Shown here: positions 26,504 to 33,714 of the stretch, piece after piece | How the letters are laid out: each line of letters opens with the position of its first letter | Position numbering within the stretch: the first letter of the stretch is position 1 | Origin: Eledone cirrhosa | Lineage: Eukaryota | Assembly: GCA_964016885.1 (NCBI GenBank) | Contig: OZ024760.1 | Span: 25,234,001 to 25,298,000 of the forward strand | Direction of reading: 5' to 3' | DNA: 64,000 nucleotides | Translations under genes and position numbers: made by a program | The notes under the pieces: model-generated | The model's database searches: none | Told to the model about the DNA's origin: nothing | The model's input: the letters and a program-made list of their open reading frames with translations, nothing else

Positions 26504-26821
26504 ATATATATATATATATATATATATATATATATATATATGTCTATATATATATATCTATTTATATATTTATATGTATGTATTTATTTATATAAATATA
26601 CAATTAAGTTAAAGTGTACATCTACATATGTATACGGAAGTATTAGTATGCATATAAATACACACATGTATACATATGTACATGTACTCAGCTTTTCACT
26701 AGACACTTTACAGTGAGTGTCAGCTAGTCTGTATGTAACCACACAGGCGGACCGGGTTTTAGAGTCATACGAGTTTTCAAGGAAACACATTTCCTCTATT
26801 CTCCAGAGGGCCAGACAGGAA

Positions 26822-26862
26822 TATTGGACTAGTTTCGATGTTATTACATCTCATCAGCAATA
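26822..26862 (-). ncRNA. Minimal type I hammerhead ribozyme, array A (repeated at 27291, 27760, 28229, 28698)
   Basis: Reverse complement reads tattg-CTGATGA-gatgt(aata)acatc-GAAA-ctag-TC-caata in each monomer. Confidence 0.92.
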
Positions 26863-29223
26863 TTTACCCATCTTCCGGCTTCTCTGGAGAATTGTAAAAG
26901 CACATATCGTTATATGCTTTTTCTATGAAAATTAGTAGTGGGTAGACTAATTTGCATAGAACGTGAGTCATTGTACGCACCGGTTCAGCGGAAACGATAA
27001 AAACAAATAACGAAACGAAATTAAATTTCGTTTCGCTTCTAACTCACTTTTGTATGACTGACGCTTAAACAATTAAGTTAAAGTGTACATCTACATATGT
27101 ATACGGAAGTATTAGTATGCATATAAATACACACGTGTATACATATGTACATGTACTCAGCTTTTCACTAGACACTTTACAGTGAGTGTCAGCTAGTCTG
27201 TATGTAACCACACAGGCGGACCGGGTTTTAGAGTCATACGAGTTTTCAAGGAAACACATTTCCTCTATTCTCCAGGAGGCCAGACAGGAATATTGGACTA
27301 GTTTCGATGTTATTACATCTCATCAGCAATATTTACCCATCTTCCGGCTTCTCTGGAGAATTGTAAAAGCACATATCGTTATATGCTTTTTCTATGAAAA
27401 TTAGTAGTGGGTAGACTAATTTGCATAGAACGTGAGTCATTGTACGCACCGGTTCAGCGGAAACGATAAAAACAAATAACGAAACGAAATTAAATTTCGT
27501 TTCGCTTCTAACTCACTTTTGTATGACTGACGCTTAAACAATTAAGTTAAAGTGTACATCTACATATGTATACGGAAGTATTAGTATGCATATAAATACA
27601 CACATGTATACATATGTACATGTACTCAGCTTTTCACTAGACACTTTACAGTGAGTGTCAGCTAGTCTGTATGTAACCACACAGGCGGACCGGGTTTTAG
27701 AGTCATACGAGTTTTCAAGGAAACACATTTCCTCTATTCTCCAGGAGGCCAGACAGGAATATTGGACTAGTTTCGATGTTATTACATCTCATCAGCAATA
27801 TTTACCCATCTTCCGGCTTCTCTGGAGAATTGTAAAAGCACATATCGTTATATGCTTTTTCTATGAAAATTAGTAGTGGGTAGACTAATTTGCATAGAAC
27901 GTGAGTCATTGTACGCACCGGTTCAGCGGAAACGATAAAAACAAATAACGAAACGAAATTAAATTTCGTTTCGCTTCTAACTCACTTTTGTATGACTGAC
28001 GCTTAAACAATTAAGTTAAAGTGTACATCTACATATGTATACGGAAGTATTAGTATGCATATAAATACACACATGTATACATATGTACATGTACTCAGCT
28101 TTTCACTAGACACTTTACAGTGAGTGTCAGCTAGTCTGTATGTAACCACACAGGCGGACCGGGTTTTAGAGTCATACGAGTTTTCAAGGAAACACATTTC
28201 CTCTATTCTCCAGGAGGCCAGACAGGAATATTGGACTAGTTTCGATGTTATTACATCTCATCAGCAATATTTACCCATCTTCCGGCTTCTCTGGAGAATT
28301 GTAAAAGCACATATCGTTATATGCTTTTTCTATGAAAATTAGTAGTGGGTAGACTAATTTGCATAGAACGTGAGTCATTGTACGCACCGGTTCAGCGGAA
28401 ACGATAAAAACAAATAACGAAACGAAATTAAATTTCGTTTCGCTTCTAACTCACTTTTGTATGACTGACGCTTAAACAATTAAGTTAAAGTGTACATCTA
28501 CATATGTATACGGAAGTATTAGTATGCATATAAATACACACATGTATACATATGTACATGTACTCAGCTTTTCACTAGACACTTTACAGTGAGTGTCAGC
28601 TAGTCTGTATGTAACCACACAGGCGGACCGGGTTTTAGAGTCATACGAGTTTTCAAGGAAACACATTTCCTCTATTCTCCAGGAGGCCAGACAGGAATAT
28701 TGGACTAGTTTCGATGTTATTACATCTCATCAGCAATATTTACCCATCTTCCGGCTTCTCTGGAGAATTGTAAAAGCAAATATCGTTATATGCTTTTTCT
28801 ATGAAAATTAGTAGTGGGTAGACTAATTTGCATAGAACGTGAGTCATTGTACGCACCGGTTCAGCGGAAACGATAAAAACAAATAACGAAACGAAATTAA
28901 ATTTCGTTTCGCTTCTAACTCACTTTTGTATGACTGACGCTTAAACAATTAAGTTAAAGTGTACATCTACATATGTATACGGAAGTATTAGTATGCATAT
29001 AAATACACACATGTATACATATGTACATGTACTCAGCTTTTCACTAGACACTTTACAGTGAGTGTCAGCTAGTCTGTATGTAACCACACAGGCGGACCGG
29101 GTTTTAGAGTCATACGAGTTTTCAAGGAAACACATTTCCTCTATTCTCCAGAGGGCCAGACAGGAATATTGGACTAGTTTCGATGTCATTACAATTCTCC
29201 AGAGAAGCCGGAAGATGGGTAAA

Positions 29224-29264
29224 TATTGCTGATGAGATGTAATGACATCGAAACTAGTCCAATA
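29224..29264 (+). ncRNA. Minimal type I hammerhead ribozyme, array A inverted arm; predicted cleavage after GUC at 29259
   Basis: tattg-CTGATGA-gatgt(aatg)acatc-GAAA-ctag-TC-caata: complete core, stem I, stem II and palindromic stem III. Confidence 0.92.
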
Positions 29265-30186: not shown

Positions 30187-31933
30187 TTTACCTATCTTCC
30201 GGCCTTTCTAGAGAATCGTAAAAGCACATATCGTTATATGCTTTTTCTATGAAAATTAGTAGTGGGCAGACTAATTTGCATAGAGCGTAAGTACGTACCG
30301 GTTCAGCGGAGACGATAAAAACAAATAACAAAACGAAATTAAATTTCGTTTCGTTTGTAACTCACTTTTGTATGACTGACGCTTAAACAATTAAGTTAAA
30401 AATGTACATCCACATATGTATACTGAAATACTAGTATGCATATGAATACACACACGTGTACATATGTAGATGTACCGAGTTTTTCACTGGTCACTTTACT
30501 GTGAGTGTCCAGCTATTCTGTATGTAAACACGCAGACAAACCGGTTTTTAGAGTCATACTGGTTTTTGAGGAAACACCTTTCCTCTATTCTCCAGAAAGC
30601 CAGACAAGGAATATTGGACTAGTTTCGATGTTGTTACATCTCATCAGCAATATTTACCTATCTTCCGGCCTTTCTAGAGAATCGTAAAAGCACATATCGT
30701 TATATGCTTTTTCTATGAAAATTAGTAGTGGGCAGACTAATTTGCATAGAGCGTAAGTACGTACCGGTTCAGCGGAGACGATAAAAACAAATAACGAAAC
30801 GAAATTAAATTTCGTTTCGTTTGTAACTCACTTTTGTATGACTGACGCTTAAACAATTAAGTTAAAAATGTACATCCACATATGTATACTGAAATACTAG
30901 TATGCATATGAATACACACACGTGTACATATGTAGATGTACCGAGTTTTTCACTGGTCACTTTACTGTGAGTGTCCAGCTATTCTGTATGTAAACACGCA
31001 GACAAACCGGTTTTTAGAGTCATACTGGTTTTTGAGGAAACACCTTTCCTCTATTCTCCAGAAAGCCAGACAAGGAATATTGGACTAGTTTCGATGTTGT
31101 TACATCTCATCAGCAATATTTACCTATCTTCCGGCCTTTCTAGAGAATCGTAAAAGCACATATCGTTATATGCTTTTTCTATGAAAATTAGTAGTGGGCA
31201 GACTAATTTGCATAGAGCGTAAGTACGTACCGGTTCAGCGGAGACGATAAAAACAAATAACGAAACGAAATTAAATTTCGTTTCGTTTGTAACTCACTTT
31301 TGTATGACTGACGCTTAAACAATTAAGTTAAAAATGTACATCAACATATGTATACTGAAATACTAGTATGCATATGAATACACACACGTGTACATATGTA
31401 GATGTACCGAGTTTTTCACTGGTCACTTTACTGTGAGTGTCCAGCTATTCTGTATGTAAACACGCAGACAAACCGGTTTTTAGAGTCATACTGGTTTTTG
31501 AGGAAACACCTTTCCTCTATTCTCCAGAAAGCCAGACAAGGAATATTGGACTAGTTTCGATGTTGTCTCTAAAAACCGGTTTGTCTGCGTGTTTACATAC
31601 AGAATAGCTGGACACTCACAGTAAAGTGACCAGTGAAAAACTCGGTACATCTACATATGTACACGTGTGTGTATTCATATGCATACTAGTATTTCAGTAT
31701 ACATATGTGGATGTACATTTTTAACTTAATTGTTTAAGCGTCAGTCATACAAAAGTGAGTTACAAACGAAACGAAATTTAATTTCGTTTCGTTATTTGTT
31801 TTTATCGTCTCCGCTGAACCGGTACGTACTTACGCTCTATGCAAATTAGTCTGCCCACTACTAATTTTCATAGAAAAAGCATATAACGATATGTGCTTTT
31901 ACGATTCTCTAGAAAGGCCGGAAGATAGGTAAA

Positions 31934-31974
31934 TATTGCTGATGAGATGTAACAACATCGAAACTAGTCCAATA
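31934..31974 (+). ncRNA. Minimal type I hammerhead ribozyme, array B inverted arm (repeated at 32400-32440)
   Basis: tattg-CTGATGA-gatgtaacaacatc-GAAA-ctag-TC-caata. Confidence 0.92.
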
Positions 31975-33714
31975 TTCCTTGTCTGGCTTTCTGGAGAATA
32001 GAGGAAAGGTGTTTCCTCAAAAACCAGTATGACTCTAAAAACCGGTTTGTCTGCGTGTTTACATACAGAATAGCTGGACACTCACAGTAAAGTGACCAGT
32101 GAAAAACTCGGTACATCTACATATGTACACGTGTGTGTATTCATATGCATACTAGTATTTCAGTATACATATGTGGATGTACATTTTTAACTTAATTGTT
32201 TAAGCGTCAGTCATACAAAAGTGAGTTACAAACGAAACGAAATTTAATTTCGTTTCGTTATTTGTTTTTATCGTCTCCGCTGAACCGGTACGTACTTACG
32301 CTCTATGCAAATTAGTCTGCCCACTACTAATTTTCATAGAAAAAGCATATAACGATATGTGCTTTTACGATTCTCTAGAAAGGCCGGAAGATAGGTAAAT
32401 ATTGCTGATGAGATGTAACAACATCGAAACTAGTCCAATATTCCTTGTCTGGCTTTCTGGAGAATAGAGGAAAGGTGTTTCCTCAAAAACCAGTATGACT
32501 CTAAAAACCGGTTTGTCTGCGTGTTTACATACAGAATAGCTGGACACTCACAGTAAAGTGACCAGTGAAAAACTCGGTACATCTACATATGTACACGTGT
32601 GTGTATTCATATGCATACTAGTATTTCAGTATACATATGTGCATGTACATTTTTAACTTAATTATATATATATATATATATATATATATATATATATATG
32701 TATGTATATTTATTTATATATATATATATATATATATATATATATATATATATATATATATATATATATATATATATGATAATAAGGGCGCTGCGGAGTT
32801 GCAAATGGGTTACACATGAAAAAAGTTTGTCCTTCATCAGTAATCTTCCAACTATCATAGGCATTTCATCGCTTTAAAGACCATATACCTCCGGTTGGTG
32901 CGAGCAACGGCTAAAAAAAGTCGTTGGGACACGTAAATAAAGGGGACCCGAGGGTAAACAAACAAAATGGTGGGGCAACAGAAAGTGAGGAATAAGGAGA
33001 CGAAGGTGAAATGCAAAGAAGCGACGAAGAATTTATGAGGGAAAGAGAAAAATAAATATTTTGTAAAGATTGCTTAAAATATTCCTTGAGAGGCTGATCT
33101 TATGTTTTTCAAGAAAAGACAAAAATATAACAACGAAAGAGTTAAAGAATAAATACGTGAATGGCGGCGAAGGTGGAGTTGGTAGGAGGTGGTGGTGGTG
33201 GTGCTGCTGTTCGGTTGTAGTGCTGGTGGCGGTGGTGGTGGTGCTGGTGGTTGGTGCTGGTGGTGGTGATGCCAATGGCGGCGATGGTAGTACTGGTAGG
33301 TGGTGGATGAGGTGAAGTGAAATGGAATGAATTATAGAGTTTTTTGGAATAAATATATACACAAAGCAAATGTAAATAATCATGGCGGAATTGTAGGGAT
33401 GTAAGGGGATGGTTGGGTGGGGGTGGGGGGGGGGGGGCGATATTTGAAGTGAGAATACTGGATAGAAATGCAATTAGATCGGAAGAAATATGAGATAATT
33501 GATGAAAAAAAAAAAGAAGCACTAGAAGAAGAAATCTTTGGCAAAAAAAGAACAAACTCCACGAAAAAATTATACGATGATGGAATTAGAAATGAATTTA
33601 AATATATATATATATATATATATATATATATATACATATAAATATATATATATATATATATATATATATATATATATATATATATATATATATATATATA
33701 TATATATATATATA

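Follow-up and report, generated by a model that had tools for sequence, protein, structure and literature searches.

By what route do animal retrozymes, non-coding tandem units that each carry a hammerhead ribozyme, return to DNA? This open question is raised anew by a 64,000-nucleotide (nt) stretch of the Eledone cirrhosa genome (assembly GCA_964016885.1, contig OZ024760.1, positions 25,234,001 to 25,298,000; hereafter the window), which holds two neighbouring arrays of hammerhead-bearing units. Mobilisation of retrozymes by Penelope-like elements (PLEs) and copying from RNA circles have been proposed because the elements occur together and are related in sequence, while the structure of insertions did not enter the argument (PMC7229834; 10.64898/2026.07.22.740005; here and throughout, statements on cited papers refer to the portion of each text that was accessible). 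The structure of the insertions described here bears on the question. We propose that the two arrays, A and B, are separate young insertions, probably made by a Neptune-type PLE reverse transcriptase (RT)-endonuclease that copied one RNA, more likely than not a circle, from both ends of a DNA break.

Opposed arms with two fixed 3′ ends

Array A is a 469-nt repeat at 26597-29552 and array B a 466-nt repeat at 29849-32663, ~89% identical to one another. Units within an array differ at 0-4 positions in A and 0-2 in B, and the longest ATG-initiated open reading frame (ORF) in a four-unit concatemer spans 64 amino acids in A and 50 in B. These measurements confirm the near-identical non-coding units of an original prediction made on this DNA; stops in every frame rule out coding or rolling-circle translation of the monomer. 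The same prediction had described tandem arrays. The units are indeed repeated, but neither array is a simple tandem: each is one insertion composed of two head-to-head arms. This build, its (TA)n target and its two fixed 3′ sites are the most informative part of the locus, and the original prediction missed them.

The strand turns at 29189-29193 in array A and at 31566/31567 in array B, and the RNA 3′ ends of the arms face outward into (TA)n. Numbering the monomer from the first base after GUC, the predicted cleavage site, we mapped each end to one of two sites, proximal or distal. In insertion A, the left arm (26597..29193, − strand) contains ~5.5 units of 469 nt and has its RNA 3′ end at the proximal site (230), adjoining (TA)n; the right arm (29189..29552, +), which includes a TA-rich hairpin with a 6-nt deletion, consists of positions 399-469 plus 1-299 and ends at the distal site, again against (TA)n. 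The arms overlap by 5 nt at 29189-29193. A (TA)n tract at 29553..29848, the target sequence, separates A from insertion B, where the order is reversed: the left arm (29849..31566, −; ~3.7 units of 466 nt) ends at the distal site (position 302) and the right arm (31567..32663, +; ~2.4 units) at the proximal site (position 228), adjoining (TA)n, and the inner junction is blunt (monomer positions 449/64). The 'tail' that separates the two end sites (monomer B 229-302; 31732..31805, +) contains a 13-bp hairpin in which A>G change recurs, in other copies, at adenosines 268, 272, 273 and 277. A TA-rich imperfect palindrome (32109..32184, +; monomer B ~140-215) immediately precedes the proximal site; its counterpart is a true (TA)n run in a related family, C.

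We searched the 3.0-Gb genome (G000) and obtained 339 candidate places for B and 516 for A, of which 40 and 38, respectively, were scored. From the matches listed in these searches we assembled a best-hit set of 76 insertions of at least 300 nt, leaving out one at a stretch edge: 48 were two-armed, 27 one-armed and 1 complex. In this set, 117 of 124 3′ ends fell at monomer positions 227-234 or 299-303, two sites ~70 nt apart. All 41 two-armed copies with both ends at fixed sites joined one proximal to one distal end, an outcome with a chance of 2^-41 if ends were chosen independently; the other 7 of the 48 had one off-site end each. Four one-armed copies conceal a second arm of 9-18 nt, in every case of the complementary end class. 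Mixed ends were likewise seen by eye in all 10 clear two-armed copies among 30 loci taken by position across subfamilies, family C included, the remainder being one-armed, degenerate or unreadable. The edited set, 13 further loci, comprised 8 with mixed ends, 1 with two distal ends (L203), 2 one-armed copies, 1 running off the stretch and 1 with an off-site end. Summed over all sets, both ends could be classified in 60 two-armed copies, and 59 of these have one end of each kind. Family C retains both sites with a tail of 59 nt between them, so it is landmarks, not a measured distance, that fix their positions.

Both end sites finish in U-rich sequence, of which 2-3 nt could pair with a TA primer. 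TA-rich DNA adjoins 85 of 89 3′ ends at these sites; among one-armed copies it adjoins 27/27 3′ ends and 8/27 5′ ends. Repeats resembling target-site duplications (TSDs) flank 5 of 48 copies versus 1.7% of mismatched pairs, although TSDs are mostly unreadable in (TA)n. Inner junctions are scattered and unique to each locus, and 30 of 48 overlap by 0-5 nt. No 5′ end lay within 2 nt of the cleavage site (0/123; 1.3 expected if uniform), so copying reads through the cleavage junction. Linear cut monomers, considered as a template, had predicted a pile-up of 5′ ends at that point and were rejected. Proximal and distal arms did not differ in length (medians 1,035 vs 979 nt, p 0.94), and flanks showed no excess of inverted duplication over the control (48 copies). 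At two loci, L179 and L188, the flanks past the TA read alike outwards, as if the insertion had entered the middle of a palindrome.

Penelope-like elements of the same build

A GIY-YIG search of the genome returned 10,596 candidates. Long PLE frames encode RT, then a C-rich linker, then GIY-YIG, which is the Neptune order, and the linker as described in 10.1101/2021.04.23.441226 suggests the clade name Neptune-type. One such family gave 96 scored matches that are 97-100% identical, 28 of them with a stop-free frame of 775 amino acids. At 26 loci of this family, 15 copies have divergent ends in (TA)n; in 14 of the 15 a short end is paired with a long one, the two lying 68 nt apart, and the remaining locus has four ends. 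Several PLE families in the genome have the same build as the retrozyme insertions.

Published PLE traits include an inverted copy, a tail usually on one end and a (TA)n bias (10.1101/2021.04.23.441226); in vitro, a PLE has been shown to cut AT-rich DNA on both strands and to extend each of them, and its two internal start sites define the tail (PMC11167929). The insertions described here share with the Neptune and Naiad elements of these papers an inverted 5′-truncated copy, a one-end tail, the (TA)n preference, two internal RT start sites and partial tandems. They differ in having no ORF, in a tail of ~70 nt as opposed to 30-40, and in having both arms built as concatemers from a short unit. 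The near-absolute one-of-each rule (59 of 60) also contrasts with the PLE assayed in vitro, for which no strand difference in start site was seen (PMC11167929).

Neither an RT nor a GIY-YIG ORF is present in the unit, and six PLE proteins found no match in the window by tblastn, which indicates that the unit is not an autonomous PLE. In L1 twin priming, two DNA ends prime on one RNA and produce a head-to-head inversion with a microhomology join. There the first start is the poly(A) tail and the second a variable internal site. In the insertions described here, each of the two starts is a fixed internal site, and the arms can both be longer than one unit. We compared the monomer with 50 GIY-YIG-bearing stretches, a non-exhaustive sample drawn from 150 scored of the 10,596 candidates, and blastn and nhmmer found only other retrozyme copies; a 12-nt match to the 3′ untranslated region of one PLE was judged to be chance. 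Homology thus pointed to no partner among these stretches, and mobilisation in trans by the Neptune-type family is read from anatomy. On that anatomy, it is very probable that PLEs mobilise this retrozyme family.

As a separate observation, the terminal repeat of the Neptune-type elements (L113 ~6097-6144 and related loci) carries a hammerhead-like motif with a palindromic stem III in which UUGAAAA replaces CUGAUGA, identical in 33 copies. U3-A8 is a natural hammerhead variant.

The RNA template and its ribozyme

Was an RNA copied, and did both arms copy the same one? We ranked units from the 3′ end and compared variants that occur in some units of both arms: 32 of 44 comparisons agreed between arms, where permutation gave 23.5 (p 0.016, 8 loci), and the first informative unit pair agreed in 7 of 7 cases; such agreement is expected if both arms start in the same unit of one RNA. 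Variants common to both arms, read in RNA sense, comprise 14 A>G versus 4 T>C (12 vs 2 distinct sites), with 8 of the 14 coming from L048, whereas private variants comprise 19 A>G and 24 T>C. A hairpin pattern with two edits was counted 61 times, at 14 loci with no fewer than 5 haplotype backgrounds, and its antisense counterpart 0 times; the pattern was picked after seeing L048, and lineages are shared, so the 14 loci are not 14 events. ADAR chemistry is the basis for reading sense-strand A>G as editing, and we infer that the clusters reflect ADAR editing of the RNA template. Together, the mirrored variants and A>G clusters point to an edited RNA template common to both arms, and one RNA molecule quite probably templated both.

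Strand-biased A>G change bears on a purely DNA-level origin, in which a satellite would arise without an RNA stage, through tandem amplification, DNA rolling circles or fold-back inversion where (TA)n is fragile, or in which the arrays would be an artefact of assembly. Instability of (TA)n tracts, which are also hard to assemble, and the local growth of some arms would suit such an origin. It is nevertheless already largely refuted and in our judgement extremely improbable: besides the A>G bias, the fixed paired end sites are common to protein-coding PLEs, and the junction is unique at each locus. In contigs from sequencing run X1, 14 of 15 listed joints are inversions spread over different positions, and both end sites show loose ends of TA; the build therefore exists outside the assembly, X1 possibly being the assembled sample itself. 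Artefact, the refutation that the original prediction had named, is thus discounted at the level of the class. The kinds of sequencing run are not on record (none is listed as RNA), and contigs were not used as evidence of expression.

The RNA reading is further informed by the ribozyme. A motif scan of both strands found 11 complete type I hammerheads in the arrays, 8 on the − strand (CUGAUGA at 26857, 27326, 27795, 28264, 28733, 30181, 30647 and 31113) and 3 on the + strand (29229, 31939 and 32405); two others are cut off at the inversion points (29172, 31549). The example at 29222..29266 (+) has stem I AAUAUUG/CAAUAUU, CUGAUGA, stem II with a 6-nt loop, GAAA and the palindromic stem III ACUAGU, and cleavage is predicted after C29259, which is C17 of the first + copy. 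The original prediction had given the same number of intact copies, the same CUGAUGA/GAAA/GUC and ACUAGU motifs and the same cleavage position, and it erred in calling the ribozyme minimal. Stem I has 7 bp plus GG/CC beyond a bulge, loop 2 has 6 nt and is A-rich and conserved, stem III is a 2-bp palindrome and the GGUA bulge is conserved. Set against the definitions in PMC4209133, the 2-bp stem III, 6-nt loop 2 and GGUA bulge identify the putative ribozyme as the canonical metazoan type I form and not the minimal PLE form, which has no stem III stem and no loop-loop contact residues.

A covariance-model check had been suggested for these hammerheads, and its outcome was divided: the Hammerhead_HH9 model of Rfam scored 38.9 bits (E 2.3e-8), short of its gathering score, 52, and at gathering thresholds Rfam found nothing in the window. 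Across 10 related sequences, hence not independent events, 92% of cells were paired and 6 of 16 pairs showed two-sided change, a level reached in 0 of 500 shuffles. This supports a structurally conserved predicted ribozyme whose pairs covary across subfamilies. The monomer folds at a predicted −151.9 kcal/mol (z = −10), with a long stem joining both ends; in a dimer co-fold, the extended stem III did not form. A comparison of changes in the core and elsewhere in young copies (6/4,517 vs 737/177,309 positions) was left unused, being confounded by subfamily sites in the background.

The canonical form of the ribozyme also sets the unit apart from the minimal motifs of PLEs (PMC7761336), which matters for the idea that it is the pseudo-long terminal repeat (pLTR) of an as yet unfound PLE, or derives from one by deletion, the arrays then being tandem pLTRs and not an independent retrozyme. 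That idea draws on the insertion anatomy, identical to that of PLEs in this genome, and on frog retrozymes, which match PLE termini in 24 of 57 families (10.64898/2026.07.22.740005). We regard it as very improbable, given that the 50 PLE stretches hold no homologous sequence, that the local Neptune family has a different, variant hammerhead, and that no ORF lies beside any insertion end inspected, the ends adjoining TA or unrelated sequence.

The form of the template is best read from L048. There, two differently edited units alternate in both arms; the units carry subfamily alleles from separate homogeneous loci, and the switch falls between 432 and 85, an interval spanning the cut site. L206 resembles L048, and these two loci weakly favour a ligated dimer circle. 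The same PLE two-ended insertion could instead have used a long uncut linear array transcript, the hammerhead being incidental to mobility, with long transcripts and local duplication together accounting for long arms. An uncut multimer would explain the in-register variants and the read-through at the cut site equally well, L069 shows a non-periodic pattern (X,Y,Y), variants confined to one arm (array A, L044 and L148) show duplication after insertion, and uncleaved RNA was the main PLE substrate in vitro (PMC11167929). Nonetheless, an uncut template appears unlikely to us: independent editing would differ unit by unit, whereas the L048 edits recur every second unit in both arms; arms reach 31 units, as in the single arm of ~31 units at L180-L181; and the stems covary and the core is kept across subfamilies. 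We therefore lean somewhat towards a circular template.

Set out as steps, PLE copying of a circle would run as follows. The arrays would be transcribed, the A>G scars marking an RNA stage; hammerheads would cut the transcript and units would be ligated into monomer or dimer circles, by analogy with known retrozymes; and ADAR would edit hairpins of some RNAs, as the strand-biased A>G clusters suggest. A PLE protein would then cut a (TA)n tract through both strands, and the resulting 3′ ends would prime on the same RNA, each at a different one of two sites ~70 nt apart, through 2-3 nt of UA pairing, in line with the observed end sites and one-of-each rule. Each polymerase would pass the cleavage junction for one to tens of units, consistent with the lack of stops at the cut site. 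The two complementary DNAs (cDNAs) would be joined at arbitrary points with the 0-5 nt overlaps seen at inner junctions, and later local duplication would lengthen some arms, as in array A.

Several points weigh against this account. The predicted monomer fold mispairs the ribozyme core, and in the available text on frog retrozymes only 1 of 9 dimers was cleaved in vitro (10.64898/2026.07.22.740005). Hammerhead cleavage was dispensable for PLE insertion in vitro, and no link between strand and start site was seen there (PMC11167929); L203, with its two distal ends, breaks the pairing rule; and the monomer is without homology to any of the 50 PLE-bearing stretches. The in-register test covers 8 loci and its agreement fails far from the 3′ ends, the shared A>G changes are concentrated in L048, the hairpin pattern was chosen post hoc, and the order of units at L069 is at odds with a simple circle. 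In array A, a private variant is common to four neighbouring units but missing from the opposite arm, and at position 454 the arms are out of register; some of the tandem length therefore postdates insertion.

Because the insertions bear the PLE signature at fixed, mapped positions, the account makes exact in vitro predictions: starts at 228-233 and 302, one per strand, and cDNA in multimers when the template is a circle. That unlike ends are paired almost without exception also limits how PLE integration, a poorly understood process, can proceed, and A>G scars fixed in both arms would represent RNA editing that entered the genome via retrotransposition. More tentatively, and as a case we place a little short of even, a PLE enzyme dimer may grip one ribozyme-made circle at two fixed sites, one for each (TA)n end, with both copies rolling round it and with ADAR edits and mixed-locus dimer circles entering the germ-line genome. 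If so, the thousands of insertions would preserve, like fossils, the traces of rolling-circle reverse transcription and of heritable RNA editing, and PLE integration would have an obligatory geometry, made visible by the one-of-each rule.

The retrozyme family and other features of the window

Exact core patterns in the genome number 4,081 for the A and B subfamilies and 23,560 for the wider clade (reversed control, 0). By our own count, the first 100 A and B cores represent 27 loci, which extrapolates to roughly 1,100 loci. Subfamily D has 17 differences from B; family C, with a monomer of ~470-540 nt and an internal (TA)n run, has 305 identities in an alignment to monomer B. An insertion on another contig (L031) is 100% identical to B, and the family is therefore very young. 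The family has no LTR structure. These results support a dispersed, young, non-coding, low-GC (36-37%, thus below 50%) tandem-hammerhead repeat of the apparent non-LTR retrozyme kind, and with them the recently active dispersed family that the original prediction had proposed.

We compared this family with metazoan non-LTR retrozymes of coral, mussel, axolotl and newt satellite 2 (PMC7229834; 10.64898/2026.07.22.740005). Common to both are non-coding low-GC tandem units, one canonical type I hammerhead in each, a weak palindromic stem III, dispersed copies from dimers to long multimers, a highly self-paired monomer and PLEs in the same genome; family C even shares a U-U mismatch at the stem II base with axolotl HHR_Amex2. 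Judged by its sequence, the family has every sequence-level feature of non-LTR retrozymes. Its monomer of 466-540 nt is longer than the 170-400 nt of the invertebrate examples. RNA circles have been shown for metazoan retrozymes, whereas this family is known from DNA, and many frog families are homologous to a PLE pLTR, a kinship we did not find here among the 50 PLE-bearing stretches compared. Plant LTR retrozymes (PMC4918200) are likewise non-autonomous and hammerhead-processed, with a proposed circular intermediate, but their type III hammerhead, LTRs, primer-binding site and polypurine tract, 4-bp TSD and Gypsy partner were not seen here. The accessible text of the two metazoan papers does not describe head-to-head arms, a (TA)n target, two fixed end sites or A>G scars, and the word 'inverted' appears 0 times in the main text of PMC7229834 as available. 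A literature search, with most subscription papers outside its reach, found no study of cephalopod retrozymes, retrozyme editing or PLE twin priming. The kind of element is thus known, and this insertion anatomy is undescribed in the portions of the retrozyme literature compared.

Once per unit, 100 nt upstream of the ribozyme core, stands the octamer ATGCAAAT (for example 31839..31846, +). It is present in 445 of 519 core-bearing units, at 100 nt (A, B and D) or 88 nt (C) upstream of the core; it sits in a hairpin and is itself hit by A>G change in L048. It is possibly an internal promoter element; newt satellite 2 is said to use a small nuclear RNA-type promoter (PMC2220036).

Further copies and reads of the family merit note. 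A third retrozyme insertion in the window (33716-34186) belongs to family C; of its two arms, one ends at the proximal and the other at the distal site, both in (TA)n, and its core is CUGACGA. At L155-L156, a 14-kb locus, an entire two-armed insertion has been duplicated in mirror image around the hairpin at 261-287. In runs X5 and X6 the D ribozyme predominates, its stem II containing a compensated pair. As hints that we did not use as evidence, run X4 has one 495-nt contig (one unit plus 30), and X5 has a low-depth contig with 25 differences in 148 nt, whose 27-nt loose end shows 7 differences, all A>G by eye.

Elsewhere in the window, a 192-nt element at 26313-26504 lies in (TA)n and consists of a 114-nt palindrome with a 78-nt one-sided tail. 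The palindrome comprises two inverted half-hammerheads (stem II, GAAAC, stem III and GUC) and no CUGANGA. Its family has 1,904 candidates, is dispersed and of near fixed length, and 35 of 40 scored copies are full length at 93-100%; the element resembles a miniature fold-back PLE passenger. At 11586-13282, two inverted arms between (TA)n tracts are identical at 551 of 552 aligned bases over the part compared, with ~60-67 extra bases on the right end only, a PLE-type build in unrelated sequence. Three more type I hammerhead-like motifs, at +2945, −41763 and +1600, have a palindromic stem III and a long stem II, and the type at −41763 also occurs in L117 and L128. A 200-N assembly gap lies at 19334-19533, and two other tandem repeats are present: a 60-nt unit at 22703-23171 (7.8 copies, 98%) and a 97-nt unit at 49710-50203 (5.1 copies).

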